This document shows positions 7,866 through 64,000 of a stretch of 64,000 nucleotides of DNA, piece by piece (the first letter of the stretch is position 1; the number at the start of each line of letters is the position of its first letter). A model generated the notes under the pieces. It was not told the origin of the DNA and did no database searches. It saw only the letters and a list, made by a program, of their open reading frames with translations. Source of the DNA: Eubacteriales bacterium. Lineage in GTDB: Bacteria > Bacillota > Clostridia > Oscillospirales > CAG-272. The translations under genes were made by a program, and so were the position numbers. The stretch is taken from NCBI GenBank assembly GCA_045632305.1, contig JAZQWL010000010.1:3399-67398 (forward strand), given 5' to 3'.

Positions 7866-8058
7866 CCGCCGATCGCAGAAAAAAACTGATATATTATTAA
7901 ATAATTTGTATATAAATAATAAAAGTTTTACGATTATTCATAATCAGTTCAATATGCCTTCACTTAATCGTTGTATAATAACACATATTTGTGAAATTAT
8001 ACCCAAATTGTAATTTCAGGAAAATAAAGCCCGCGTATGCGGCATGGAGGAAAATAAA

Positions 8059-9777
8059 ATGGGAAAAGGTAGCAGAAACAAGCTCGATAGAGCTCAGGCG
8101 CAGATCGACAGCCCTGAGGCATATCTTGCAGAAAGACGTAAGCTCAACAAAAAAAATCAGAAGAAGACAGGCCTTGGCGTAACGATCACATGTATCGTTC
8201 TCGTTGCTGCAATTCTTCTTTCAATCGCGTTCTTCGCGCTTAGCGCAACAGGCGTGTTCGCTCGTATGACAAACACGATCCAGACAGAAAACTTCGTAGT
8301 AACTGAGTCCATGATGCAGTTCTTCTACAACGAGTATATTCTCAACTGGGTTAACAACAGCACAAACCAGATGTACATTATGTACGGTATGATCGATTTC
8401 TCCGGTGACCTCAGAACTCAGAAGTGCACTATTGCAGAATCCGGCACATGGTACGATTACTTTTTGGCAGGCGCTATTGATAACGCAACTATGTACCTCG
8501 AATACGCTGAGGGTGCAAAGGCAGCAGGCTTTTCTCTCGACGACGAGGATTACAAGGAGATCAACGAGACTGTTAAGGCAATGAAGAAGGCGCTCAAGGA
8601 GAGCGGCGAGACAATTTCCGACAGATACGGTGATTCCGTTTCCGCAACAGACGTAAAGAAGTGCTATGAGCTTATCTATCTCGCATCCAAGTTCAACGAT
8701 GCAAAGATGGAACAGCTTGAAGCGGCGGCTCGCGCTGACGATGCGAAGGTATTGGCATATCCTGAAGCACACAAGTCTGAATATTATTCCGCAAAGTACA
8801 TTTCTTACACTATCACAGTAAGAAGCGATGACGTAAAGCTCAGAAACGAAGCTCTTCTTGAGGAAGCAAAGGCAGAGGCAAAGGCAAACGCAGAGGCGAT
8901 TGCAGCTGCAAAGGATACAGAGGCATTCTTCGAGCTTATCAAGGAACACCTTGCAAAGGTTGAAGAAACAACAACTTCCACAGAGGGCGCAACAACTGCA
9001 GCGGCTACAACCGCAAAGGAACCCAAGTACGAGGATTACACGAAGGAAGCTACTTACGGTGAATCCAGCGATCTTGAAAAGTGGCTCTTCGTTGAAACAG
9101 CTCAGGAAAACGACGCTAAGGTTATTGAAGAAAGCTCCACCGAAAACAAGAAGGCATCCGACGGTACAACAAAGAAGGTTGACGTATACAAGTACACAGC
9201 ATACATGGTAATCAGCCCCAAGGCGCTTGACACAGACCTCACACTCAAGCTCGGTTACATCATTTCTTCCGATAAGGCAATTGTCGAAGAGCTCAGAGCA
9301 GCATTCCTCGCAGGCGATACAAAGACAGCTGCAGCTCTCGATGAGATCGGCCAGGCGAAGTTCAAGGAGCTTAGCGAGGCAGGAAGCACGATCCAGCTCG
9401 GATCCGGCTCAAGTAAGAATGCTAAGTCCGACTCCTTCAAGACGTCCTACAAGGAATTTGACGCATGGCTCAATTCTCAGGATAGAAAGCCCGGAGACCT
9501 TTCCGATGTTATCACGATTGCTCCTACTAAGGATGGCGCTACAACTTATTACATCGTAGGTTATTTTGAAGATACATCCGATCCCGTATGGAAGGCACAG
9601 GCCATCGGCGCTATCGTTGGCGAAGGTATGGATGAGTGGTACAAGGGCGTTGACGGCAACGGCGGTCAGCTTGCTTTGACACCCATCGAAAAGAACGAGC
9701 GCTCTCTTAAGGGTATCAACGTTTCCAAGTATTTCCTTAATCTTGCTTATAATTTGATGGCAGGAATGAATGCCTGA
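8059..9777 (+). CDS. membrane-anchored extracytoplasmic protein, loosely PrsA/SurA-N-like, no clear PPIase motif
   Basis: GGAGG RBS before ATG 8059. Basic N-tail, single TM, large Ala/Lys/Glu-rich ectodomain. The end region (WLxxQDRKPGD...YYIVGYF) recalls Clostridial PrsA-like proteins. Confidence 0.45.
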   Translation: MGKGSRNKLDRAQAQIDSPEAYLAERRKLNKKNQKKTGLGVTITCIVLVAAILLSIAFFALSATGVFARMTNTIQTENFVVTESMMQFFYNEYILNWVNNSTNQMYIMYGMIDFSGDLRTQKCTIAESGTWYDYFLAGAIDNATMYLEYAEGAKAAGFSLDDEDYKEINETVKAMKKALKESGETISDRYGDSVSATDVKKCYELIYLASKFNDAKMEQLEAAARADDAKVLAYPEAHKSEYYSAKYISYTITVRSDDVKLRNEALLEEAKAEAKANAEAIAAAKDTEAFFELIKEHLAKVEETTTSTEGATTAAATTAKEPKYEDYTKEATYGESSDLEKWLFVETAQENDAKVIEESSTENKKASDGTTKKVDVYKYTAYMVISPKALDTDLTLKLGYIISSDKAIVEELRAAFLAGDTKTAAALDEIGQAKFKELSEAGSTIQLGSGSSKNAKSDSFKTSYKEFDAWLNSQDRKPGDLSDVITIAPTKDGATTYYIVGYFEDTSDPVWKAQAIGAIVGEGMDEWYKGVDGNGGQLALTPIEKNERSLKGINVSKYFLNLAYNLMAGMNA

Positions 9778-12704: not shown

Positions 12705-14408
12705 ATGAGAAAGATTCTTTCCATCATTCTTGCATCTCTTATGATTCTTTCCACATTTGCTATGATTTCCGTATCCGCTGATGAGGCAGCTTCGGGAACA
12801 GAAGGTAACTGGGAAGTTCACCTTGATGCATTTGAGGAAGCAAAGAAAGAAAATGGCGAGGAGGTTTTCCAGCCCCTCCCCGGTTATCACTATACCGATG
12901 ATGGCTTTGAAATTAAGCCCGCTGAATACAATAACGTTCAGGCAAAGTATACTGTAATCAGTAAGACAAAGTACAGCTCCAAGAACTTTTCTATCAAGAT
13001 CCGTCTTGATGACTATTCTACAGAGGGCGATAGCTGGGTAAGCTTCAGCTTCTGGAGCGAAAAGCACGGTCTCGCTCAGGGTTCTACAAACTCTGACGGC
13101 TCCTTCGGTTACGGTTGGTACTCCCTCCTCCGTGACGTACTTGATCCCTATGAGGAAAGAGACGGCAAGCTCTCTTACATGCAGACCTACAACTCCGGTA
13201 CAAAGGCACAGCCCGGTGGTAACTTCACAATGGAAACCATTGAGTTTGAGCCCGACGTTGATGAAAACGGTATCCAGTACCTCACTTTTGAAGTAAAGAA
13301 CTATATCATCTTTATCAACGGTGTTGAGGTTGGTTCTACAACTAACGCTGCTAAGGCGCTCAGAAACGCGTTCAAGGATGACTCCTACCTTGCATACTTC
13401 GGTATTTCCGTAAAGAGCGGCTTGGCTAATACTCCTATCAAGTTCACAATTACTGAGGTTGATGGCGTTAAGCCCACAGGTACTGACAGCCAGGAGCCCG
13501 AAACAAAGACAAGAGAATACGGTGATATGATCGATGCATCCACAATTCCCGCAGGTACTCCCGGCGTTCTTTTCGATGCATCCATGGAAAAGCAGAACGT
13601 TAAGATGCCCTCCACATCCAAGTGCATTGTTGACTTCAACGAGGATGAATCCGCATTCAAGATCACAGCTTACGATATGATCGGTTCTATCGGCTTCTCC
13701 GTTAAGGACGATTATTCCGTTGATGTTAAGGATTTCCCCTACGTAGCAATTCTTTTGAAGAATTACTGCTCTTGCGAGCCCACAGAAGGCGTTTCTATGT
13801 CTGAAAACTGCGGCTTCGATGAAGAAGCAGGTATCTACTACTGCGCAGGTGACGTTCTTGCTCCCGATGATAAATACAAGTTTGTTCTCACAGGCGACGA
13901 TATGGTAGACGTATCTCCCGACGGAGCAGAGGATTATTATACTATCTTCTGGCAGAAGATCGATACATCAGTATTCGAAGAGGATGAGGACGGCAACAGA
14001 ATCCACTCTCTCCGTTTTGACTTTGCATACATCACTCCTATGCAGGAATTCGAGATCATCTCCGCAGGTTACTTCAAGAACAGGGAAGACATCGTTTCCT
14101 TCCTTACAGCAGCCGGCTATAACATTTCCATCGAGGATATGGGCGGTGCAGAAGATGATAACGAAGGTGAGCCCGGCGGCGTAGAAGAGGAAACAACTGA
14201 GCCCAACTACGATAATACTCCCGAGGATTTCACTGACGAAGGTGAAGAAGAAACAACAAAGAAGAAGGAAAACAAGACAACAGCTGCTTCTAACGATGAA
14301 GACAAGAAGGGCGGTTGCGGTTCTGTAGTTGGTATGGGCGCAGTTGCTATTATTGCAACAGCTTCCGTAGCAGGCGCAGTTATCTTCAAGAAGAGAAAAG
14401 AAGATTGA
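12705..14408 (+). CDS. secreted/cell-surface protein, paralog B: signal peptide, conserved ectodomain, acidic linker, C-terminal GCGS + TM + basic tail
   Basis: Signal peptide ends ...SVSA-DE. Collinear similarity to paralog A (GNWE.HLDAF, QAKYTVISK.KYS.KNFS.KIR, FWSEK.GLAQGS, FPYVAI.LKN.C.C). C-terminus is KGGCGSVVGMGAVAIIATASVAGAVIFKKRKED. Confidence 0.8.
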   Translation: MRKILSIILASLMILSTFAMISVSADEAASGTEGNWEVHLDAFEEAKKENGEEVFQPLPGYHYTDDGFEIKPAEYNNVQAKYTVISKTKYSSKNFSIKIRLDDYSTEGDSWVSFSFWSEKHGLAQGSTNSDGSFGYGWYSLLRDVLDPYEERDGKLSYMQTYNSGTKAQPGGNFTMETIEFEPDVDENGIQYLTFEVKNYIIFINGVEVGSTTNAAKALRNAFKDDSYLAYFGISVKSGLANTPIKFTITEVDGVKPTGTDSQEPETKTREYGDMIDASTIPAGTPGVLFDASMEKQNVKMPSTSKCIVDFNEDESAFKITAYDMIGSIGFSVKDDYSVDVKDFPYVAILLKNYCSCEPTEGVSMSENCGFDEEAGIYYCAGDVLAPDDKYKFVLTGDDMVDVSPDGAEDYYTIFWQKIDTSVFEEDEDGNRIHSLRFDFAYITPMQEFEIISAGYFKNREDIVSFLTAAGYNISIEDMGGAEDDNEGEPGGVEEETTEPNYDNTPEDFTDEGEEETTKKKENKTTAASNDEDKKGGCGSVVGMGAVAIIATASVAGAVIFKKRKED

Positions 14409-14516: not shown

Positions 14517-14545
14517 TTGAAAGAAAGCAAAAATAGTGATATAAT
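14517..14545 (+). promoter_or_regulatory. sigma-A promoter of ilvE
   Basis: TTGAAA-17 nt-TATAAT. The leader is only about 30 nt. Confidence 0.6.
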
Positions 14546-14580
14546 CATATACATAGATAACCCGAAGGGACGTGATATTT

Positions 14581-15606
14581 ATGGATAAGAAAAATATAAA
14601 TTGGAGCGAGCTTGGTTTCGGTTACGTAAAGACCGACAAGAGATACGTTTCTTATTATAAGGACGGCAAGTGGGACGACGGTCAGCTTACCGAGGACGAT
14701 ATGATAACACTTAGCGAATGCGCTTGCGTTTTCCAGTACTGTCAGACCTGCTTTGAAGGACTCAAGGCGTACACAACTGCCGATGGGAAGATAGTTGCAT
14801 TCCGCCCCGATCTCAATGCAGAGAGAATGGCTCAGTCTGCCGACAAGCTCAAGATGCCGATCTTCCCCGAGGAAAGATTTGTTGATGCTGTTGTAAAGAC
14901 GGTTCGTGCAAATAAGGAATTTGTGCCTCCATACGGCTCGGGCGCGACGCTTTATCTTCGCCCTTATATGATGGGAACGAATCCCGTAATCGGCGTAAAG
15001 CCCGCTACGGAATTTCAGTTCAGAATTTTCGCGACGCCCGTAGGCCCTTATTTCAAGGGTGGCGTTCGTCCTCTTAAGCTCCGCATTTCGGATCTTGACA
15101 GAGCCGCGCCCTATGGCACGGGACATATCAAGGCGGGACTTAACTACGCGATGAGTCTTTACAATATCGTAGACGCGCACGACAAGGGATTTGACGAAAA
15201 TATTTACCTTGATCCTAAAACTCATACGAAGATCGAGGAAACGGGCGGCGCAAATATTATATTCATTACAAAGGACGGCAAGGTTGTTACACCTAAGTCG
15301 AACAGCATTTTGCCCTCTATTACAAGACGCTCGCTTCTTTACGTTGCGAAGGAATATCTCGGTCTTGAGGTTGAGGAAAGAGAAGTCGACGTAAACGAGC
15401 TTGAGGACTTTGCGGAATGTGGCCTCTGCGGTACTGCGGCGGTAATTTCTCCTGTGGGCATGATCGTTCACGGCGATAAGGAGATCGCGCTTCCTTCGGG
15501 AATGAACGATATGGGGCAGGTAACGAAGAAGCTCTATGACACTCTTACGGGAATTCAGATGGGTAGAATCCCTGCTCCCGAGGGTTGGATTACGGTAATC
15601 GAATAA
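14581..15606 (+). CDS. ilvE: branched-chain amino acid aminotransferase
   Basis: Class IV aminotransferase sequence (NWSELGFGYVKTD..., LRPYMMGTNPVIGV, GTGHIKAGLNY, GTAAVISPV). ATG 14581 preferred, placed after GAAGGGA. Confidence 0.85.
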   Translation: MDKKNINWSELGFGYVKTDKRYVSYYKDGKWDDGQLTEDDMITLSECACVFQYCQTCFEGLKAYTTADGKIVAFRPDLNAERMAQSADKLKMPIFPEERFVDAVVKTVRANKEFVPPYGSGATLYLRPYMMGTNPVIGVKPATEFQFRIFATPVGPYFKGGVRPLKLRISDLDRAAPYGTGHIKAGLNYAMSLYNIVDAHDKGFDENIYLDPKTHTKIEETGGANIIFITKDGKVVTPKSNSILPSITRRSLLYVAKEYLGLEVEEREVDVNELEDFAECGLCGTAAVISPVGMIVHGDKEIALPSGMNDMGQVTKKLYDTLTGIQMGRIPAPEGWITVIE

Positions 15607-15610
15607 AATA

Positions 15611-15640
15611 AAAATCCCGATTGCAAGATCGGGATTTTTT
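15611..15640 (+). terminator. intrinsic terminator after ilvE
   Basis: ATCCCGAT.../...ATCGGGAT stem followed by TTTTTT. Confidence 0.7.
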
Positions 15641-15662
15641 GGAAAGAAGGTTGAGGTTTTCT

Positions 15663-16403
15663 GTGATACAGGATCTGCATTCACATACTTATTATTCGTT
15701 TTGCGGCGAGGATACTCCCGAGGCGGTGGTTGAAGCGGCGATAAATGGCGGCATAGAGGTGCTTGGAATAACCGACCACAATCATGGAATCGGAAACGCA
15801 ACAACACAGGTGTTTTTTCACGGCAACAAAATTGAAAAATACGATTATGAGCGCACGCTCAGACGTTATTTTGACCATATAAATCTCATTAAAGAAAAAT
15901 ATGACGGAAAAATACAAATTTTGCGCGGTATAGAGCTTTGCACAAAGAATTTGCAGAGGCATTTCCTCCCCGATAACGCGGACGTCTCGTTTTTTGATTA
16001 TTGTTTGATAGAAAATATTGACGAGGCGGACAGTGTTACGAATAACGATATTTTTTCTTATGCGGAACGGCTCGGAACTGTCTGCGGTGTCGCGCATACG
16101 GATATGTTTGCCTATATAAAATCGCGCGGCGAGGATGCGTATAAATATTTCAAGAGAATGGCGGATATGGGTATTTTCTGGGAAATGAACGTAAACCTCG
16201 ATACGATCCACGGCGGCAGGGAGCATAAATATATGCTTGACTTTTTCTCAAACGAAGAACAAAAGGCAATTGTTCGTGAATCGGGAGTTCGTCTTTCGGT
16301 TGGCTTTGACGGACACAGAGTTTACGATTATAAGCCCGATAGAATAGCGTATTATTGTAACAAAATAAGCGAGATGGGTATTAAGCTCGCGTTTGAAGAA
16401 TAA
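15663..16403 (+). CDS. PHP-domain phosphoesterase (histidinol-phosphatase-like family)
   Basis: N-terminal DLHSHTYYS and ITDHNHG PHP motifs. Start moved to GTG 15663 because the upstream part of the ORF overlaps the ilvE terminator. Confidence 0.65.
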   Translation: MIQDLHSHTYYSFCGEDTPEAVVEAAINGGIEVLGITDHNHGIGNATTQVFFHGNKIEKYDYERTLRRYFDHINLIKEKYDGKIQILRGIELCTKNLQRHFLPDNADVSFFDYCLIENIDEADSVTNNDIFSYAERLGTVCGVAHTDMFAYIKSRGEDAYKYFKRMADMGIFWEMNVNLDTIHGGREHKYMLDFFSNEEQKAIVRESGVRLSVGFDGHRVYDYKPDRIAYYCNKISEMGIKLAFEE

Positions 16404-18430: not shown

Positions 18431-19576
18431 TTATTTGAAGAATTTTTCAATATTTTCTCTTGGAGCATTCGTGCTTCCCTGAATCATTTTTTCAGATCCG
18501 CCGCCGCGAGAAGACAGCTCGTCCTTCATTTTTGCGGCGATTTCGCGCATATTTACGCTATTTGAAGCCGCAATATATTTATAGCCGTCCTTGTCATTGC
18601 CCACAAAGCAAGCGCAGATACCACCGCATTTCTGCATAGCGGAGTTTACAAGCTCACGCGCGTCGTTTGTATCAAGGTCGTCCTCGAAAATGCAGATGTC
18701 CCCGTCGGTCTCATTGATTGAACCGAGCTTGTATGAGCGAAGCTCACGCTTTGCAAAATAAAGCTTTTCGCGGTAGCCGTCGATGGTTTCCGTAAGGCGA
18801 CGCGTCGCATCGAAAACCTCGTTTTGCTTTACCGAGAGCATATTTGAAATCGCCTTGCACTGATTATATTTTTCTCTGTAATCATAGAGCGCAGCCATGC
18901 CGCAAACAACGTTCAGACGCACGCCGCCCTTGTGTCTTATAAAGTCGAGAATTTTGATGATTCCGACCTCGCCCGTGTTGTAAACGTGGGGGGCGCAGCA
19001 AGCACAAATGTCCACACCGTCAATAACTACAAGGCGTGTATTTTCAAGGTTTTCAAGCTTTGAGCGGTAGGAAATACCTGCAAGCTCCTCGTCCGTCGGA
19101 TAGTAGCATTTTATGGGGTGGCATTCGTAGATCACGCGGTTTGCAAGCTCCTCGATCTCGTCGAGCTGCTCGCGTGTAAGCTCGCCTGAAAAATCTACCG
19201 TCATACCCTCGCGCGAGAGGTGAAAGCCCACGTTTTCGTAGCCGTATTTCTTATGTACCAATCCTGAAATTATATGCTCGCCCGTGTGGTTCTGCATATT
19301 GTAATAACGGTGGGAGAAGTCGATTTCACCGTGAACGGTTGAGCCGACCGTAAGTGGCGCGTCGCAGACGTGGAAGATTTTACCCGCGCGTTCAACTACG
19401 TTTTCAACTTTCGCATCTCCGAGAGCACCGACGTCGCTCGTCTGTCCGCCCTCATTTGGGAAAAATGCAGTCTTGTCAAGAAGAATTTCGTATTTTCCGT
19501 CTGTTAAATCACATGAAATTACCTCTGCGTCAAAGGAGCAGAGCTTTGAATCTTTGTCAAATAATCTTTCTGTCAT
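18431..19576 (-). CDS. alaX: alanyl-tRNA editing protein AlaX-L (editing domain + DHHA1)
   Basis: HTGEHI and CCAPHV zinc motifs of the AlaRS editing domain, plus C-terminal GGGS (DHHA1). Start set at ATG 19576, because the ORF upstream of it overlaps a terminator. Confidence 0.75.
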   Translation of the reverse strand: MTERLFDKDSKLCSFDAEVISCDLTDGKYEILLDKTAFFPNEGGQTSDVGALGDAKVENVVERAGKIFHVCDAPLTVGSTVHGEIDFSHRYYNMQNHTGEHIISGLVHKKYGYENVGFHLSREGMTVDFSGELTREQLDEIEELANRVIYECHPIKCYYPTDEELAGISYRSKLENLENTRLVVIDGVDICACCAPHVYNTGEVGIIKILDFIRHKGGVRLNVVCGMAALYDYREKYNQCKAISNMLSVKQNEVFDATRRLTETIDGYREKLYFAKRELRSYKLGSINETDGDICIFEDDLDTNDARELVNSAMQKCGGICACFVGNDKDGYKYIAASNSVNMREIAAKMKDELSSRGGGSEKMIQGSTNAPRENIEKFFK

Positions 19577-19580
19577 ATTT

Positions 19581-19614
19581 TTAAAAAGTGAGGTGTTGCG
19601 GGTGCAACACCTCA
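19581..19614 (-). terminator. intrinsic terminator after the glycoside hydrolase gene
   Basis: 11-bp stem TGAGGTGTTGC/GCAACACCTCA followed (minus sense) by CTTTTT. Confidence 0.65.
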
Positions 19615-19628
19615 AAGTGTTTTTATTT

Positions 19629-22355
19629 TCAGATAAGGGATGTATGTACGAAGCTGTACTTCTTTGTAAAGCATCCACCGTGGAAGCCGTTCCAGAGGCA
19701 ACCCTCATCATAGAAGCAAGGAGGAGCAACGGAAAGAAGCTCTCCTGCGGGATGGTGGTGGGGACCTAAGAGGTTACGGAGGTTGTTTACAAGAGTAATC
19801 TCGATTTCGTTTTCGCCAACTACGAGGTATTCGGAGAGATCAACGGAGAAGGGAGCCCAGAGAACCTTGGCTACGAGCTTGCCGTTAACCTTAACTCTAA
19901 CCGCATTTACGCCGCGACGAATAAATTCGAACTTGTAATCTGTGGAATCGAGGTTGAACTTCTTATTAAGTGTAAGCTCGCCTGCGAAGAAGGGGAAGCC
20001 CTGCTTTTCGATCTCGTGGAGAGTAACCGTCTTCTTGGGAGCGTCAACTGTGAACTTGCCGTCGAAGTGAACTGCGTAGCCGGGAGTGTCAACGAAGCTG
20101 CCGTCCATACGAACGGAGAAGTCACCTACAAGGTACATAGCTTCGATTTCCATATCGTATGTGAGCTTGTTCTTTTCGGATTCGAAAATCTTGGACTTTT
20201 CCATGTTTTCGTAAACCTCGGGTGACTGAACGAAGTGAGTATAGAGCTCAATTACGTTTTCACCTGTTGTCATATAACCCGAAACGTCGAGCTTTCTGAA
20301 TGCGATATCGCGGAAGTAACCGCAATCACGCTGCTCAAGCTCGCGACCGTTGATAACGATCTTGAATATCTCGGGAGTTTCGCAAGCCAAGTAAAGCTCT
20401 GCGGGAACGTAGTCCATATTTACCTTGAATGCACACTTGATATCAACAGGGCGACCGAGTGCGTAAGCACGTGATGCAACGTTGAGAATGTAGCCGTCCT
20501 CCTGCTGAAGCTCACCGTCGAACCAGTAGTCGCAGAAGTCGAGCGTAAGCGCGTTTTCGGTAGCGTTCTTTACGTTCCATTCGCCCTCAAGGGAGATGGG
20601 AGCAAGTGTCTTTTCTTCCTTCTTTTCGGACTTTTTCGTACCGTCCTCAATAACGATAAGAGAACCGTACTGAGGGAATGTATATTCGCCGCAGAAGTCG
20701 ATCTTCTCACTTGTTACAATATCAATAGCGTAGCTGCCGCGTGTAATAACTGCCTTTTCCTCGGACTCGTTTGTGTTAACAAAATAGTGCATTGTGAAAT
20801 CAGGGAATTCACGTGTTGTGTATGTGATCTTGGGATTGTCGATAATATCGTTTGCCTCAAGCTCGTCAACGGACTCAACGATGCGTCCGCCCTGTGCCTT
20901 AAATTCAGCAAGAAGCTTTTCGGTGTTTTCAAGATACATGTGGTGGCGAGGAGTTACAACTGTGTCGTATTCCATTTCACCAATAATGAGCTTGCCACCT
21001 TCAACGCGACCGTGTCTTTCCATCATGATCTCGTCACCGAAGTGGAAAGGAATGTGCTTTGCTTCGAGCTTCATCATTGCCTCAACCTGTACTATGTTGT
21101 AGAAGTCAAGACCGGGATTGGCCGCATTGTCGAAGCATACCCAAGCGGAGGTCATGTTGTGCATGCAGAGAGTGTTTACCTTCACCTTACCTTCAGCGAG
21201 GAGCATACCGACTCTAGACATAGCGTCGTTGAATTCACGGTAGTCTGCCCACCAGGGCTGCTGGCAATACATTGCCGGAGGATAGTCTCTCTTGCGGATA
21301 CCGCGGAGGGAATAGCCCTCAAGGTGCTGGCAGAGGAGGTTGATACCGCGTACCATCATCCATTCGTAGTTTCTCTTGAGCTCGTCAAAGCCAACGTTGT
21401 GACCGCAAAGAGCGAATGTTTCGGAGAGGATCTGCTTTTTTCCTGTCTGCGCGGCAACGGATGCTACCTGATAGTGTGTAAAGCAGGGGAAGATATTACG
21501 TCCGAGCCAGTCCATACCGGGGATGTCCATGTACTCATAGTGAGGCATGCATGCGCCGTTGGAGATAAGCTGACAGCCGAGGTTTTCTTCAAGAACCAAG
21601 TGACCTGTGAACTTGAGGTTATGCGCGTGGCACCATTCGTAGATCTGCTTGTTGAACGCTTCGGAGAAGAGCTCTGTGATAAGCTTCCAGAACTTAACTC
21701 TTGCCTGAGGGAAGCCGTCCTTCTGGATATAGAGCTTGGGAAGGATCTCGTAGATGCTCTCGCCGTACGCCGCCTCGTATGCTGCGGGGAGAGTCAAGCT
21801 CCACGGAATGCCGTTTCTTGAGATCTGGGGCTCGTCCGTGAAGAAGCCGTCGAACTCAGAGCCGTATCTTGCATAATAGGGCTCGTAAATTTCATTTATA
21901 AAGTCTGCGATAACCTCTTTGTCGAGCGTGTCAACGTAGAAGGGGTTAACGTCATAGTAGAAGCAATATTCGTCATCAATGTGGATGATGCGGTGCTCGG
22001 GGATATTGGATCTGTCAGCGTCCTTAGGCATGTAGCGAAGATACTTCTGCCAGTATTTCTCACCCTTACCGTTTACAAGACCGCCGCCGAAGCCGGAGGG
22101 CCAGCCGTTTTCATCGTATGCCCACGCGTGCATGCCTCTTTCCTTTGCGTCCTCAACACAAGCGGTAACGTTTTCGAACCATTCCTCACCCATGTATTCT
22201 GTCTGAAGACCGCCTCGAGCGTGCATAAAGTAACCGCCGATGCCAACCTCATCCATCATCTTTGTCTGACGGAGAGTTTCGTCAACCGTGAGCTTTTCGT
22301 TCCAAGACCAGAAGGGCACAGGACGGTATTTTTTGTCAACATTCTTAAAATCCAT
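19629..22355 (-). CDS. large putative glycoside hydrolase (GH106-like / jelly-roll glycosylhydrolase-like family; family uncertain)
   Basis: 908 aa. N-terminus RPVPFWSWNEKL...GIGGYFMHARGGL is typical of this uncharacterised GH group. No signal peptide. Confidence 0.55.
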   Translation of the reverse strand: MDFKNVDKKYRPVPFWSWNEKLTVDETLRQTKMMDEVGIGGYFMHARGGLQTEYMGEEWFENVTACVEDAKERGMHAWAYDENGWPSGFGGGLVNGKGEKYWQKYLRYMPKDADRSNIPEHRIIHIDDEYCFYYDVNPFYVDTLDKEVIADFINEIYEPYYARYGSEFDGFFTDEPQISRNGIPWSLTLPAAYEAAYGESIYEILPKLYIQKDGFPQARVKFWKLITELFSEAFNKQIYEWCHAHNLKFTGHLVLEENLGCQLISNGACMPHYEYMDIPGMDWLGRNIFPCFTHYQVASVAAQTGKKQILSETFALCGHNVGFDELKRNYEWMMVRGINLLCQHLEGYSLRGIRKRDYPPAMYCQQPWWADYREFNDAMSRVGMLLAEGKVKVNTLCMHNMTSAWVCFDNAANPGLDFYNIVQVEAMMKLEAKHIPFHFGDEIMMERHGRVEGGKLIIGEMEYDTVVTPRHHMYLENTEKLLAEFKAQGGRIVESVDELEANDIIDNPKITYTTREFPDFTMHYFVNTNESEEKAVITRGSYAIDIVTSEKIDFCGEYTFPQYGSLIVIEDGTKKSEKKEEKTLAPISLEGEWNVKNATENALTLDFCDYWFDGELQQEDGYILNVASRAYALGRPVDIKCAFKVNMDYVPAELYLACETPEIFKIVINGRELEQRDCGYFRDIAFRKLDVSGYMTTGENVIELYTHFVQSPEVYENMEKSKIFESEKNKLTYDMEIEAMYLVGDFSVRMDGSFVDTPGYAVHFDGKFTVDAPKKTVTLHEIEKQGFPFFAGELTLNKKFNLDSTDYKFEFIRRGVNAVRVKVNGKLVAKVLWAPFSVDLSEYLVVGENEIEITLVNNLRNLLGPHHHPAGELLSVAPPCFYDEGCLWNGFHGGCFTKKYSFVHTSLI

Positions 22356-55997: not shown

Positions 55998-56112
55998 TCT
56001 TTTGAAAAGCACAGTCGGAAGATTTTGCTATTCAGTTTTTTGCAGGATTTTTTATCAGGCGTCAAAATATGGGTAATATAAGCATATATGAACATGTGAG
56101 GTGATGCTTGTC

Positions 56113-57822
56113 ATGAAAAAAATTTTTGTAATATTTCTTGTACTGATCTCGGTTTTTGCCTTTTCGGGATGCTCCGATCGGCACGACGCGGAGGATGGGG
56201 ACAAGGAGCAGAATATAAATTATAACTGCGAAATAGCGGTGAAGGGGAAGGAGCAGAAAATTGCGGTTTCCTGGAATAAGAATGCGGATATAAAACGGGT
56301 GGATATAAAGATAAGTCACGGAGACATGACCGTGTTGGATACAACTATAAGAGGCGAGACGCTTAGAAACGGGTATGCCGAGGCAGACGTGTTTTACGGC
56401 AGACACAACGTAAGCGTCACGGTTGTGGGTGAGGACGGAAAAATCGAGCAGGTAAATCAAGAGGTGTCTCTTTTTTGCGATGAATACGTTATAGCTCCGA
56501 TATCGGGATCCATGCCTCAGCTATATTTTACGCTTTATATGAATGAGATCACAAACGATTACAGGATACCTGCATTCGTGTGGCTTACCCGTCCCGACAG
56601 CTGGAATTGGGAAAAGCTGCCTGCAAACGTTTATCCTATGCCCACAGTTGAGCTCGATGAGGTTCTTATGCATAACAATTATGATAAAATGGTCGAGGTG
56701 ACGGACGCGTATATAGAGGAGCTTTATTCTGTAAATCCCGATTCGAAATTCAAGCTGTATATCAACGATTTCAATATGTATCTGTACCCCAAGCTGATGG
56801 CGGCGAACGGGATTCCCGAGGAGAATTACGAGGTGTTTTTACTGTCCGACGGCGGCTCGTCATACAGGGAATTCAACCGAGCGTTCAACAGTGACGATAA
56901 GAATTTTGACGCCGACGTTAAATACGCCGAAATGGCAGAGAAGCTTGATCTCTTACTTGATGAGGTAAGGGAGATCAAGGATTATAATTGGATATACGAT
57001 TTTACGGTGGATACGAACGAGATAAGGCAGTACGCTTACGTTGCGGCAAAGGAAAAGGATAACGTCGAATGGTGGGTGTTGCGCCCGAGAGCCAATCAAA
57101 CGTTTTTCTCTCCCGATGAGGAGTTTTTAAATAACGCGATGACCGCCGACGTCACAACAAGACCTGAGGAAAGTGAGAATCCCGTTATTGTAGAAAGAAA
57201 TTTCGCCACTCCCTTGAATTTAATGAACGATGAGCAGAGGGTGGCGCTCAAGGAGTTTTACAACTTTAAGGATGAAATGTTTTCCGAGGCGGTAGCGCAG
57301 GGGAAGAGGGTCATGATGTTTCTCGGCTCGTGGGCGGATGAGATAAACGAGCCGGATTTCCATGCCTACGTCAAATTTATGAAAAACTATTTCGGTGACG
57401 GCTTTGTGTATTATTATAAGGGGCATCCGTCGACGCCCACGTCAAATTATCCGACAAAGCAGGCAGAGCTGTCAGCGCTTGGGCTTGTAGACGTGGAATC
57501 ATCAATAAACGCGGAGCTGATTTTATTCTTTTACCCCAACGTCTATATGTGTGGATACAATTCCTCGACCTTTATGTCGGCACATAAGGATGAGATGGTG
57601 TGCGCTATCTTCGGTATGAGAGCGGAGGAATGCCGTGAGGATTATAAGAGCAGGGTAGGACTTTTTGTATCGAAAATAACCGATTTTACAGAGTTTCCCG
57701 AATGCGAGGGCAGCTCGCACGAGTATTTTCTCATTGAATACAACAGAATTCCGTCCGAGTATGAATACAGCATCTACGACGCGACGGCGGACGAGATTAT
57801 CGGAGGCCCTGTGAAAACTTAA
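56113..57822 (+). CDS. lipoprotein with GT80 (bacterial sialyltransferase)-like motifs and an N-terminal Ig-like segment
   Basis: Lipobox VFAFSG-C. Motifs LLSDGGSSY, YYYKGHPSTP and CGYNSSTFMS are collinear with the DDG, GHP and SS motifs of Pasteurella/Photobacterium GT80 enzymes, judged from memory. Confidence 0.5.
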   Translation: MKKIFVIFLVLISVFAFSGCSDRHDAEDGDKEQNINYNCEIAVKGKEQKIAVSWNKNADIKRVDIKISHGDMTVLDTTIRGETLRNGYAEADVFYGRHNVSVTVVGEDGKIEQVNQEVSLFCDEYVIAPISGSMPQLYFTLYMNEITNDYRIPAFVWLTRPDSWNWEKLPANVYPMPTVELDEVLMHNNYDKMVEVTDAYIEELYSVNPDSKFKLYINDFNMYLYPKLMAANGIPEENYEVFLLSDGGSSYREFNRAFNSDDKNFDADVKYAEMAEKLDLLLDEVREIKDYNWIYDFTVDTNEIRQYAYVAAKEKDNVEWWVLRPRANQTFFSPDEEFLNNAMTADVTTRPEESENPVIVERNFATPLNLMNDEQRVALKEFYNFKDEMFSEAVAQGKRVMMFLGSWADEINEPDFHAYVKFMKNYFGDGFVYYYKGHPSTPTSNYPTKQAELSALGLVDVESSINAELILFFYPNVYMCGYNSSTFMSAHKDEMVCAIFGMRAEECREDYKSRVGLFVSKITDFTEFPECEGSSHEYFLIEYNRIPSEYEYSIYDATADEIIGGPVKT

Positions 57823-62336: not shown

Positions 62337-62537
62337 ATGGCTATTAAAGTTAATCCTAATAAGGAAGTTGTTGATACAATAAGAGAAGGTCTCAAGAGAA
62401 CAGGCGGCTACTGCCCTTGCGTTCGCGAGCAGAGCGAGGATACAAAGTGTATGTGCAAGCAGTTCAAGGAGCAGATAAAGGACCCCGATTTCGAGGGCTA
62501 TTGTCATTGTATGCTTTATTACAAAACTAAAGATTAA
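62337..62537 (+). CDS. small ferredoxin-thioredoxin-reductase catalytic-subunit-like protein
   Basis: CPC...CMC...CHC cysteine pattern of the FTR beta-chain family. 66 aa. Confidence 0.65.
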   Translation: MAIKVNPNKEVVDTIREGLKRTGGYCPCVREQSEDTKCMCKQFKEQIKDPDFEGYCHCMLYYKTKD

Positions 62538-62548
62538 GGAGAAAATAT

Positions 62549-62854
62549 ATGGAGATCAAAATTACAAATGCTAATTTTCAGGCCGAGGTAATTGAATCCG
62601 ACAAGCCCGTGCTTATAGATTTTTACGCTACGTGGTGCGGCCCCTGTAAAATGATCGCCCCTTTTGTTGAGGAGATCGCAAACGAAAATCCCGACATTAA
62701 GGTTGGTAAGATCGACGTTGATGAGGAGGGCGCGCTTGCGACCGCCTTCGGAATCGTCAGCATCCCCACACTCGTTGTTGTAAAGGGTGGCGAGGTTGTG
62801 AACAAGGCAGTTGGTTACAGATCCAAGGATCAGATACTTAAGCTTTTGAAATAA
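62549..62854 (+). CDS. trxA: thioredoxin
   Basis: WCGPCK active site. 101 aa. Confidence 0.9.
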   Translation: MEIKITNANFQAEVIESDKPVLIDFYATWCGPCKMIAPFVEEIANENPDIKVGKIDVDEEGALATAFGIVSIPTLVVVKGGEVVNKAVGYRSKDQILKLLK

Positions 62855-62860
62855 AAAGTA

Positions 62861-62890
62861 GGGCGGGGGCTTGGCTCCCGCCGCTTTTTT
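62861..62890 (+). terminator. intrinsic terminator after trxA
   Basis: GGCGGGGGC/GCTCCCGCC stem followed by GCTTTTTT. Confidence 0.7.
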
Positions 62891-62907
62891 GCGTATTTTT
62901 GCACGAA

Positions 62908-63372
62908 TCATTAAAGCAAAAACACCGCATAGGCATTCGCCTACGCGGTATTTTTGGTCGAAGTGACACGATTCGAACTGAGATTTGTCGCGTCGCTTTC
63001 GCGACATCAAATGCTCCAAATCAAGAGAATGCAGGCATTCTCTTTGCAACAAAATCCAAATGGCTACCGCCGCCATTTGAATTTTCTGCACGTTCTCGCA
63101 TGTGTCATTAAAGCAAAAATACCGCGCAGGCATTCGCCTACGCGGTATTTTTGGTCGAAGTGACACGACTCGAACTGAGATTTGTCGCGTCGCTTCCGCG
63201 ACATCAAATGCTCCAAATCAAGAGAATGCAGACATTCTCTTTGCAACAAAATCCAAATGGCTACCGCCGCCATTTGAATTTTCTGCACGTTCTCGCATGT
63301 GTCATTAAAGCAAAAATACCGCGCAGGCATTCGCCTACGCGGTATTTTTGGTCGAAGTGACACGACTCGAAC
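62908..63372 (-). repeat. 197-bp tandem repeat (2 full units + 71-bp partial unit merging into tRNA-Pro). Each unit = ~125-nt hairpin-rich segment + last 24 nt of tRNA-Pro + terminator hairpin
   Basis: Unit starts at 62908, 63105 and 63302. Units A and B show about 6 mismatches. tRNA 3' fragments lie at 62955-62978 and 63152-63175. Terminator copies lie at 62917-62954, 63114-63151 and 63311-63348. Confidence 0.85.
63311..63348 (-). terminator. intrinsic terminator of tRNA-Pro
   Basis: Minus sense reads ATACCGCGTAGGC-GAAT-GCCTGCGCGGTAT followed by TTTTTG. The mismatch position is a G-U wobble only in minus sense. Confidence 0.7.
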
Positions 63373-63424
63373 GTGCAGCATCTTGCTCCCAAAGCAAGCG
63401 CGCTACCAATTGCGCCACACCTCG
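63349..63424 (-). tRNA. tRNA-Pro (anticodon UGG)
   Basis: Hand-folded 76-nt cloverleaf. Acceptor CGAGGTG/CACTTCG, D stem GCGC/GCGC, anticodon stem CTTGC/GCAAG with loop TTTGGGA, T arm GCACG-TTCGAGT-CGTGT, encoded CCA. Confidence 0.85.
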
Positions 63425-63439
63425 ATATTCAACTATGAT

Positions 63440-63468
63440 ATTATATCAAATATTTTTCAAATTGTCAA
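63440..63468 (-). promoter_or_regulatory. sigma-A promoter of tRNA-Pro
   Basis: Minus strand shows perfect TTGACA-17 nt-TATAAT, about 15 nt upstream of the tRNA 5' end. Confidence 0.7.
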
Positions 63469-63491
63469 CAACTTTCAAAATATTAATTATT

Positions 63492-63854
63492 TTATTTCCT
63501 TTTCGTTTTCGTCACCTCAAAGCTTGCATTTAAAAGAAATCTTACGATCTCATCGGGCGCGTCTTCGAGTATGATCGACACCCAGTGGAGCTTATTCATG
63601 TGGTATGCGGGATAGACTCCGTCGGTTGCATCGAATGATCCATGCATATCAAGGGGGAGCTTGACATTAACGACGTCAATTATTCTATTGCTGTTACCTA
63701 CAAGCTTGCTTTTCGGAACGCGCATACAGATACAGAACCACTTACGGCTATCCGTGTGGCGCATAACTGCAGTTTCAAAATCCTCTTCAAAGGGATAGTC
63801 GGGAAGTGTATTGTGGGTGCTTTTACAAATTTCAAAAAAATTATCGCGTGTCAT
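63492..63854 (-). CDS. MmcQ/YjbR-family DNA-binding protein
   Basis: PDYPFEEDFETAVMRH...KWF and HMNKLHWVSI motifs. 120 aa. Confidence 0.7.
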   Translation of the reverse strand: MTRDNFFEICKSTHNTLPDYPFEEDFETAVMRHTDSRKWFCICMRVPKSKLVGNSNRIIDVVNVKLPLDMHGSFDATDGVYPAYHMNKLHWVSIILEDAPDEIVRFLLNASFEVTKTKRK

Positions 63855-64000
63855 ATCGTCCTCGGTCTCGGTGAGTTTATGTATATATCATAACACAATT
63901 TTCGTTCAAAATCAACTTTCCACAGAAAAATGTTGCATTTTTGGAAAATTTGTGATATAATTACACGTGGAAAACTTATAAAAAGGAGTTTTTAGATATG

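Follow-up and report, generated by a model that had tools for sequence, protein, structure and literature searches.

A tandem array of tRNA 3′ ends, terminators and structured trailers behind tRNA-Pro(UGG) in a Clostridia genome

How does the 3′ end of a tRNA gene come to be copied into the gene's own downstream region? The question is raised by a 64,000-nucleotide stretch from a Eubacteriales bacterium (GCA_045632305.1, contig JAZQWL010000010.1; hereafter the window), in which tRNA-Pro(UGG) is followed by a tandem array that repeats the end of the tRNA together with a terminator and a hairpin-rich trailer. The original prediction for this locus had put forward three readings, namely (a) remnants of attachment (att) sites, (b) a tandem family of small RNAs (sRNAs), and (c) simple unequal crossing-over. 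The array is a real feature, in which a known, poorly understood architecture is combined with a candidate new structured RNA. With about even confidence, we attribute it to recombinational amplification of a conserved module of tRNA trailer and terminator, analogous to the tyrT/tyrV repeats of Escherichia coli. This attribution is carried by the near-identity of the full units, the single trailer copy in relatives, and the preservation of the trailer hairpins in tRNA sense.

Layout of the array

Coordinates are window positions throughout, and tRNA sense denotes the minus strand. ARAGORN finds a single tRNA in the whole window, tRNA-Pro(UGG), and Tandem Repeats Finder (TRF), ARAGORN and self-BLAST agree on the predicted tandem array behind it on the minus strand. 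TRF assigns to 62908-63372 a period of 197, 2.4 copies (2.36) and 97% matches, well outside what chance would produce. In tRNA sense, the 5′ part of the tRNA is followed by S′1-body 1, S′2-body 2, S′3, a tail and the thioredoxin terminator, where S′ is the block shared with the tRNA 3′ end and the body is the trailer:

63349..63424, minus strand: tRNA-Pro(UGG), CCA encoded (ARAGORN; Rfam tRNA, 63.5 bits)
63302..63372, minus strand: S′1, first 71-nt shared block, including GCTTTAATGA (sequence, self-BLAST, D2 repeat family)
63312..63349, minus strand: terminator hairpin 1, 17-bp stem A5UACCGCGUAGGC / GCCUGCGCGGUAU5 with GAAU loop (I6/I7 inverted repeats)
63176..63301, minus strand: trailer body 1, 126 nt (covariance model, 138 bits; homologues in the relatives' loci L011, L014, L026 and L027)
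63242-63287, minus strand: H1ext of body 1, 19-bp bulged hairpin
63220-63241, minus strand: H2 of body 1, 9-bp hairpin
63179-63219, minus strand: arm 3 of body 1, GAUUUG..GUCGC-GGAA-GCGAC..CAAAUC
63105..63175, minus strand: S′2, identical to S′1, terminator hairpin at 63115-63152
62979..63104, minus strand: trailer body 2, with H1ext at 63045-63090, H2 at 63023-63044 and arm 3 at 62982-63022
62908..62978, minus strand: S′3, third, partial copy, hairpin at 62918-62955

The 71 nt of S′ comprise G+TTCGAGTCGTGTCACTTCGACCA, a 17-bp hairpin and GCTTTAATGA. Its 5′ portion is the last 24 nt of tRNA-Pro (T-loop, 3′ T-stem, 3′ acceptor strand and CCA), and this segment, TTCGA[G/A]TCGTGTCACTTCGACCA, is present in 3/3 copies. 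The first stem base of the hairpin is the A of CCA. At 17 bp and −27.4 kcal/mol, followed by U5GCUUU, the S′ hairpin has the make-up of an intrinsic terminator; RNAfold gives −27.4, −27.4 and −25.6 kcal/mol for hairpins 1, 2 and 3 on the minus strand versus −22.7, −22.7 and −17.3 kcal/mol on the plus strand. The body is hairpin-rich, and its H1, flanked by A- and U-tracts, was flagged as a terminator on the plus strand by the terminator scan. The match to the genuine tRNA begins at 63372/63371, the first base of the T-loop, with one G ambiguous, which confirms the predicted T-loop boundary.

The six mismatches and roughly 97% identity counted originally hold as a total, but not as a description of the full units. 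These mismatch at 2/197 positions (99% identical), and the other four differences all lie in the partial copy. Both changes between units 1 and 2 are inside hairpin loops, U to C in the H2 loop and GGAA to GAAA in the arm-3 tetraloop, which is GNRA either way. S′2 equals S′1 at all four sites where S′3 deviates. One of these is the T-loop change GAG to GAA, and the remaining 3/4 fall in the 3′ arm of the terminator, where minus-strand pairing is retained as U-A, G.U and U.G. The prediction that the terminator-stem differences pair in minus sense thus stands, albeit for three sites rather than two.

No further copy of the array was found in the 64 kb by BLAST and the covariance model. As neither the 64 kb nor some 170 kb of relatives' loci yielded an additional copy, a dispersed repeat of the repetitive extragenic palindrome or miniature inverted-repeat transposable element type is disfavoured. 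The right-hand edge of the array is not sharp, because the tail after S′3 (62885-62907) still resembles the first 23 nt of the body at 14/23 positions (by eye). S′3 and tail belong to the D2 repeat family (86% over 94 nt), and the tail may be native, diverged downstream sequence.

The trailer in relatives and as RNA

Relatives were collected by exact-protein look-ups with thioredoxin, YjbR and MatE homologues in ENA, Logan, NCBI and JGI metagenome assemblies. The MatE homologues bear the names Ruminococcaceae or Clostridia bacterium; one of them, P0134, led to an unrelated context, and a look-up with a spurious open reading frame (ORF) across the array yielded one further locus, L026. In these exact look-ups the window's own YjbR and ACPS proteins were without record and the array was found in no other assembly. 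The trailer is present once in every relative that bears it, so that the copy-number comparison suggested with the original prediction sets two full units in the window against one elsewhere: a complete one in L027 and a truncated one in a group of loci designated species B (L001-L017, L026).

In L027 (NCBI GCA_052830185.1), whose coding flanks are 73-87% identical to the window, the order is tRNA-Pro, a different terminator hairpin, the whole body, GTTCGAGTCCCGTCA, and the stop of the convergent gene. GTTCGAGTCCCGTCA is a fragment of T-loop and 3′ T-stem whose junction coincides to the base with that of the window (..CAAATCTC[A/G] followed directly by GTTCGAG), and no terminator stands behind the fragment. 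Since L027 holds the bracketed module in single copy, the window is taken to have one extra unit, and the trailer bracketed by a tRNA 3′ end is either old or moving as a unit. Species B, with coding flanks 77-94% identical to the window, shows GCTTTAATGA between the 3′ two-thirds of the S′ hairpin and a body segment comprising the first 92 nt. H1 and H2 are kept, followed by a decayed arm 3 and then a rhodanese gene, and there is no tRNA fragment. The 3′ arm of the S′3 hairpin in the window is the variant found in these species-B relatives. The locus L018 represents a conspecific strain (flanks 98-99% identical) and shows the right border, a partial hairpin and a tail like those of the window's third copy; the distal S′ hairpin and tail are present there, with no body at that end before the contig ends. 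None of the relatives' loci examined showed an intact S′ at a cleanly empty site.

The whole unit folds far better than shuffled sequences on either strand (z = −8.1 and −7.8). Three helices emerge from comparison with the relatives: H1ext with 19 bp and a single bulge, H2 with 9 bp, and arm 3, drawn as GAUUUG..GC..GUCGC-GNRA-GCGAC..GC..CAAAUC. Three body hairpins had been predicted, and three are conserved, the third in a form redrawn according to L027 rather than as GTCGCG/CGCGAC. In an alignment of six sequences, 99.5% of the cells are paired with one break, and the changes include two compensatory pairs (U.G to G-C in H1, C-G to U-A in arm 3) and two one-sided changes to G.U. Between window and L027, 14 substitutions in the 114-nt core disrupt 0/41 pairs, an outcome matched by 0/200,000 random-substitution trials, and 9/14 of them fall in the approximately 34 unpaired columns (P = 0.003). 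The comparison is not circular, as the minimum-energy fold of L027 on its own gives the same helices.

The strand can be read from the wobble pairs. Every sequence has two to three G.U pairs in tRNA sense that would be A.C mismatches on the opposite strand, and the reverse case occurs in one sequence only. Folding energies of the core are −49.0 kcal/mol (minus strand) versus −38.2 kcal/mol (plus strand), and the advantage in tRNA sense amounts to 5-11 kcal/mol. Conservation of the primary sequence is likewise elevated: the core is about 86% identical between window and L027 (hand count, alignment A1), compared to 71% for an intergenic control and 73-87% for coding sequences, and a 130-nt stretch made up of the S′ hairpin 3′ part, GCTTTAATGA and most of the body segment is 95-96% identical between window and species B (L011), compared to 83.5% for the intergenic control. 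A conserved ORF is ruled out by a 1-nt indel in the H2 loop of L027 that shifts the frame, and the body as coding sequence was rejected on the same grounds. Because the pairs survive substitution and the G-U pairs fit the tRNA-sense strand only, the trailer looks like an RNA structure under selection in tRNA sense rather than junk. Rfam recognises the tRNA alone and has no match for the trailer in the window or its relatives, which makes the trailer a candidate structured RNA family new to Rfam.

The units themselves do not resemble tRNAs. Neither ARAGORN nor the Rfam tRNA model sees a tRNA-like unit beyond the genuine gene. By eye, the units are without 5′ T-stem and 5′ acceptor strand, and nothing in the body is complementary to the 3′ acceptor strand, so that no tRNA-like minihelix would form.

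Origin of the array

In the reading that we favour, an old recombination, whose left breakpoint was the first base of the T-loop, would have copied the tRNA-Pro 3′ end behind a native trailer of about 126 nt, giving the order tRNA, terminator, trailer, tRNA 3′ fragment. This single-unit form is present in L027 and partly in species B. A later exchange between the 71-nt S′ repeats, by unequal sister-chromatid crossing-over or gene conversion, would then have added one unit in the window strain; the small number of differences between the full units suggests that this step is recent. Reading (c) of the original prediction is thereby retained for the last step, on the strength of the 99% identical units and the single copy in every relative. 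Read-through from the tRNA promoter, a perfect consensus match, probably enters the module. The S′ hairpin and H1ext, both flanked by A- and U-tracts, look like bidirectional terminators, and such hairpins, acting in series, would both halt and stabilise the read-through from the tRNA and protect the thioredoxin operon on the opposite strand. As a by-product, a stable RNA might be processed from the trailer, similar to E. coli RttR. The additional unit as such most probably represents neutral variation in copy number.

The flanking features to which this mechanism refers are:

63440..63468, minus strand: tRNA-Pro sigma-70 promoter, TTGACA-17-TATAAT with TG extension, 12/12 consensus positions
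63492..63854, minus strand: YjbR/MmcQ-family gene (PF04237 homologues), upstream of the tRNA, proximal boundary
62549-62854, plus strand: trx (thioredoxin; Pfam thioredoxin on orthologues), convergent to tRNA-Pro
62862..62882, plus strand: intrinsic terminator of the convergent thioredoxin operon (terminator scan), distal locus boundary

The tRNA-Pro promoter is conserved in L011, L024, L027 and L041. Each unit also contains a weak promoter-like match on the minus strand (ATGACA-16-GAAAAT, 9/12; 63278-63305 and 63081-63108), the −10 of which sits in the 5′ strand of H1ext. Species B has this match (by eye). An internal unit promoter was rejected, as the match reaches 9/12 only and L027 is without it (by eye).

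Several observations weigh against amplification of a functional trailer module. The promoter scan, with L027 inspected by eye, shows no conserved promoter directly before the trailer body, and a strong terminator precedes each trailer, so that read-through may be low. The pattern among the S′ copies is also awkward: S′1 equals S′2 but not S′3, and a hybrid would be expected from a single homologous crossover inside S′, except for one within the first 6 nt. Either a crossover at the edge of the T-loop or gene conversion at a later time would fit the pattern. The tRNA fragment moreover tracks the T-stem variant of the resident tRNA, GTCGTG in the window versus GTCC[T/C]G in L027, which implies ongoing homogenisation by recombination or separate origins; as the fragments track the resident tRNA, gene conversion among S′ copies is taken to be active and could have produced the S′ pattern. 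S′3 and tail are only 85% identical to L018 (62862-62946 versus L018 4495-4579) despite flanks of 98-99%, implying that the region was exchanged horizontally and that its history is hard to read. Together with the species-B variant in the S′3 3′ arm, the 85% identity points to a recent horizontal exchange, and on these comparisons the locus is a recombination and island hotspot with a mosaic history. Finally, the structural comparison draws on few independent lineages (window, species B and L027).

A possible, though clearly less probable, origin is that an integrase made the units as mini-elements. S′-body-S′ would then be attL-remnant-attR, similar to a cis-mobilisable element (CIME), produced by a tyrosine or serine recombinase crossing over in the T-loop of tRNA-Pro, and the second unit would have arisen by site-specific accretion in trans, through re-integration of an excised 197-bp circle or unequal att × att exchange. 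The breakpoint at the first T-loop base in window and L027 alike is in line with this proposal, as is an array that starts and finishes with an att-like block, and a crossover at the T-loop edge predicts S′1 = S′2 but not S′3. The CIME and accretion definition fits formally (PMC5704250), with S′-body-S′-body-S′ bracketing in the window and tRNA..body..T-loop fragment in L027. In addition, the relatives' locus behaves as a hotspot with variable cargo downstream of tRNA-Pro, and truncated tRNA-Pro 5′ fragments adjoin a second complete tRNA-Pro in L026 and L028; L024 and L041 show a truncated fragment on contigs that end before any second copy.

On the other hand, no enzyme or element was found to account for such a process. 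A Pfam scan (E ≤ 1e-8) of the 50 ORFs that lie upstream of 57.8 kb and encode 140 aa or more shows no integrase, recombinase or transposase; the families are housekeeping ones, such as RNase J, RelA/SpoT, RecJ, the aro pathway, a class II aminoacyl-tRNA synthetase and TrkAH. The content of the last 6 kb was judged from relatives' orthologues, with hits to ABC-transporter, ACPS and thioredoxin. The array lies 576 nt from the window end, and the gene context is therefore covered on one side only. The predicted lack of an integrase within 64 kb accordingly holds for these 50 ORFs and, via orthologues, for the last 6 kb. None was recorded in the 4-15 kb flanks of the relatives either. The search for an integrase-bearing element with the same att site, proposed along with reading (a), was negative in IMG/VR, INPHARED, PLSDB, the GTDB representatives and a metagenome scan, all by methods that require exact or close matches in collections where the lineage is poorly represented. 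IMG/VR gave zero hits for junction, body, S′, the tRNA 3′ 23-mer and a degenerate core pattern, and blastn found no array match among INPHARED phages and PLSDB plasmids. Among 185,579 GTDB representatives the body-right pattern had zero hits and the 23-mer matched one genuine, unrelated tRNA (a Clostridia metagenome-assembled genome from roe-deer cecum), while the 22-mer junction retrieved from the metagenome scan only a chance match inside a coding sequence, on a contig with a three-tRNA cluster. By eye, CTCAG, the five bases left of the T-loop in the units, is not symmetric with the 3′ T-stem, and the scar of an element is not expected to keep all of its hairpins under selection. Reading (a) thus keeps its T-loop breakpoint, bracketing, hotspot and S′ pattern, with no integrase found in the scanned ORFs or the relatives' flanks and no cognate element in the collections searched.

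The placement of the hotspot cargo also argues against an integrase-made unit. In species B it lies between tRNA and hairpin and includes DUF4379 with a 242-aa protein, HEPN_AbiU2, a 406-aa protein and others. It enters 3-9 nt past CCA, in the 5′ arm of the terminator hairpin and between two conserved borders, without clear flanking tRNA 3′ repeats, and no integrase was seen in the assembled parts of these loci. The hotspot was delineated at L011 5289-7751, L012 10858-12507, L014 10859-11700 and L026 286-1755; the DUF4379 protein there is of the DUF4379/MTES_1575 kind, the 242-aa protein is a membrane protein, and a 200-aa protein is a further cargo. On the left, the cargo is bordered by AAATCGCGGTTTTGACC...terminator. 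Its border on the right, X, resembles the final 31 or so codons of an opposite-strand gene (..KTREECEEKLAEL.., then a stop) with a hairpin of its own. X was also considered as a degenerate T-loop fragment, sharing 10/13 positions with TTCGAGTCGTGTC, and is more likely a gene remnant because 3/4 of its substitutions are synonymous on the opposite strand.

A bolder variant, which we consider unlikely, is that the 197-bp unit is the smallest known att-flanked mobilisable element, a gene-less att site with a structured RNA that a T-loop-specific recombinase encoded elsewhere would excise and re-integrate in trans. If true, it would explain the T-loop junction shared with L027, the S′1 = S′2 but not S′3 pattern and the hotspot behaviour of the locus.

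Truncated tRNA-Pro copies in the relatives deserve a description of their own. In L026 (1-285), L028 (5020-5312) and L029, a native tRNA-Pro 5′ fragment is cut after ..CTTTGGGAGCA and followed by about 160 nt with a promoter and then a complete divergent tRNA-Pro(UGG), a layout that looks like the mirror image of the 3′-fragment repeats in the window. It is possible to let the 5′ fragments end at the T-loop (..GGGAGCA, deletion, TGCAGG), with TGCAGG as the 5′ T-stem strand; this needs an assumed 6-10-nt deletion and is not relied on. In L024 (1447-1560) and L041 (8223-8336), the native tRNA-Pro 5′ fragment carries a GC-rich D-loop insert of about 113 nt, GGACGTCGCCGAAGCGCCGCC...GTTGCAACGGGAA, in place of TA. 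The insert is predicted to be highly structured, shows one compensatory pair between its two copies and has no Rfam match; it stems from two independent assemblies (Logan SRR15093057 and NCBI GCA_964567085.1), the contigs of which end soon after.

Also unlikely is that each unit is a dedicated sRNA gene for a functional RNA of approximately 190 nt analogous to RttR. Such an RNA would depend on the appended tRNA 3′ end and terminator to be processed, to be stable or to function, and two paralogues would raise the dose. This proposal overlaps with the favoured reading and shares its tRNA-sense structural conservation. The arm-3 loop is GNRA in both units and L027, and in the predicted fold of the window the tRNA fragment (GUUC..GUGUCA) pairs with the 5′ end of the body (UGACAC..GAAC), closing a four-way junction at −89.2 kcal/mol (z = −8.1). 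E. coli RttR is processed from such a unit. Conversely, the closing stem is weak and different in L027, species B has a decayed arm 3 and no tRNA fragment, and the L027 fragment is without terminator. The 9/12 promoter match, absent in L027 by eye, and the lack of an Rfam family count against it as well, and freely varying hairpin loops suit generic hairpins better than a base-pairing sRNA. Of reading (b), what survives is tRNA-sense hairpins kept by compensatory and G-U changes; the minihelix, tRNA-like unit and conserved promoter do not.

That the units are old whole-gene duplicates of tRNA-Pro whose 5′ two-thirds drifted past recognition is very improbable. Tandem and partial tRNA-Pro copies do occur in relatives, and the body weakly matches the anticodon arm (CTTGATTTGGAGCA versus CTTGCTTTGGGAGCA, shuffle P = 0.04), but the match is not significant in L027 (P = 0.53), the body hairpins are selected rather than decaying, and the identity boundary at the T-loop is abrupt. 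Finally, the wrong expansion of a single unit during assembly has slightly less still in its favour: short-read assemblers have difficulty with tandem repeats of some 200 bp, and no other assembly with the array was found, but an artefact would yield identical copies, whereas these are distinguishable by two differences between full units and four in the partial one, all structurally sensible.

Further differences between the loci concern the neighbouring genes. In conspecific strains (L020, L021) and species B, a MatE efflux gene that is absent from the window lies between YjbR and tRNA-Pro (compared at window 63476-63500, L020 4150-4300 and L011 7928-9289). The YjbR C-terminus in the window reads ..TKTKRK before the stop instead of ..TKTKRRKPAYDK, and the junction without MatE is also found in L024. 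The rhodanese gene that follows thioredoxin in species B is missing from the window and L018. Elsewhere in the window, ORFs of 420-908 aa without Pfam family (E ≤ 1e-8) are located at 8044-9777, 12705-14408, 14545-15807, 18431-22355 and 56101-57822; the relatives' orthologue of the last likewise has no Pfam hit on record.

Comparison with known systems

As a pair of GC-cored hairpins (S′ and H1ext) with A- and U-tract flanks between the convergent tRNA-Pro and trx operons, the array resembles a bidirectional terminator. It differs in that the hairpins are serial, kept across lineages and repeated as a block with a tRNA fragment. 3′ETS-leuZ of E. coli, a single-copy RNA from the 3′ external transcribed spacer (ETS) located between tRNA and terminator, is likewise a structured RNA in a tRNA trailer in tRNA sense; in the window, by contrast, each trailer stands behind a terminator and is part of a unit with a tRNA fragment.

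The CIMEs known to date span kilobases. The window units share with CIMEs and accretion the direct repeats of a target-gene 3′ end that bracket each unit, the tandem stacking, the lack of an integrase of their own, the T-loop breakpoint, and the island hotspot around the relatives' locus. Conversely, they are 197 bp in length, gene-less and free of gene remnants, and the collections searched hold no cognate element. What would be the remnant appears to be a selected RNA structure, and the 71-nt shared block runs through the terminator. For comparison, CIMEs and accretion are described for ICESt1-type elements (PMC5704250), and the Dehalococcoides ssrA islands are inserted in the T-loop, a classical crossover sublocation (PMC3146451). 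The array cautions against taking direct repeats of a tRNA fragment, by themselves, as proof of an integrated mobile element, and it offers a tractable case for telling integrase action at the T-loop from ordinary recombination. It would gain in significance should the unit turn out to be mobilised at this site, or the trailer RNA to be common and to have a function.

The closest counterpart is found in E. coli. Repeats behind tyrT have been known there since the 1970s; the tyrT/tyrV repeats were reportedly first described by Egan & Landy (1978) and Rossi et al. (1981), and Bosl & Kersten (1991) are cited in PMC3318445. In E. coli K-12 (NC_000913.3), re-checked here, a 178-bp repeat stands behind tyrV, with 3.1 copies at 95% identity. 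Each unit holds the last 19 nt of tRNA-Tyr (AATCCTTCCCCCACCACCA), with identity beginning inside the T-loop. The final unit is partial and made up of the tRNA fragment, beyond which the sequence weakly resembles the unit start (by eye). Unit 1 is annotated with rttR, a 171-nt sRNA, and the small ORF tpr. The tyrT-tyrV spacer (209 bp, 1287329-1287537) contains a diverged (87%) 122-nt partial repeat including the 19-nt fragment, and copies of the tRNA fragment therefore stand on both sides of tyrV. RttR is encoded by one repeat unit of the tyrT operon (PMC3318445), and its mode of action has been called unknown (bioRxiv 10.1101/2024.07.17.603846).

The two arrays have no homology in sequence or structure. 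Rfam RtT is not among the 15 weak matches returned by cmscan for 62400-64000 at E ≤ 10, the tRNAs are tRNA-Tyr and tRNA-Pro, and the hosts belong to different phyla. The window units each have a strong intrinsic terminator and three conserved hairpins and are without a tpr-like conserved small ORF. Still, both arrays lie directly behind a tRNA gene on the same strand, and every unit includes a tRNA 3′ segment with CCA that starts in the T-loop (19 nt in E. coli, 24 nt in the window). The dimensions are similar as well (178 bp × 3.1 versus 197 bp × 2.4), each array closes with a partial last unit, and beyond both a weak resemblance to the unit start is seen by eye. The window array can thus be regarded as an independent, non-homologous example of the tyrT type in a gut Clostridia lineage, and two unrelated arrays of this kind suggest that tRNA 3′ ends have a general route into the trailers behind them, and that such copying is no isolated accident.

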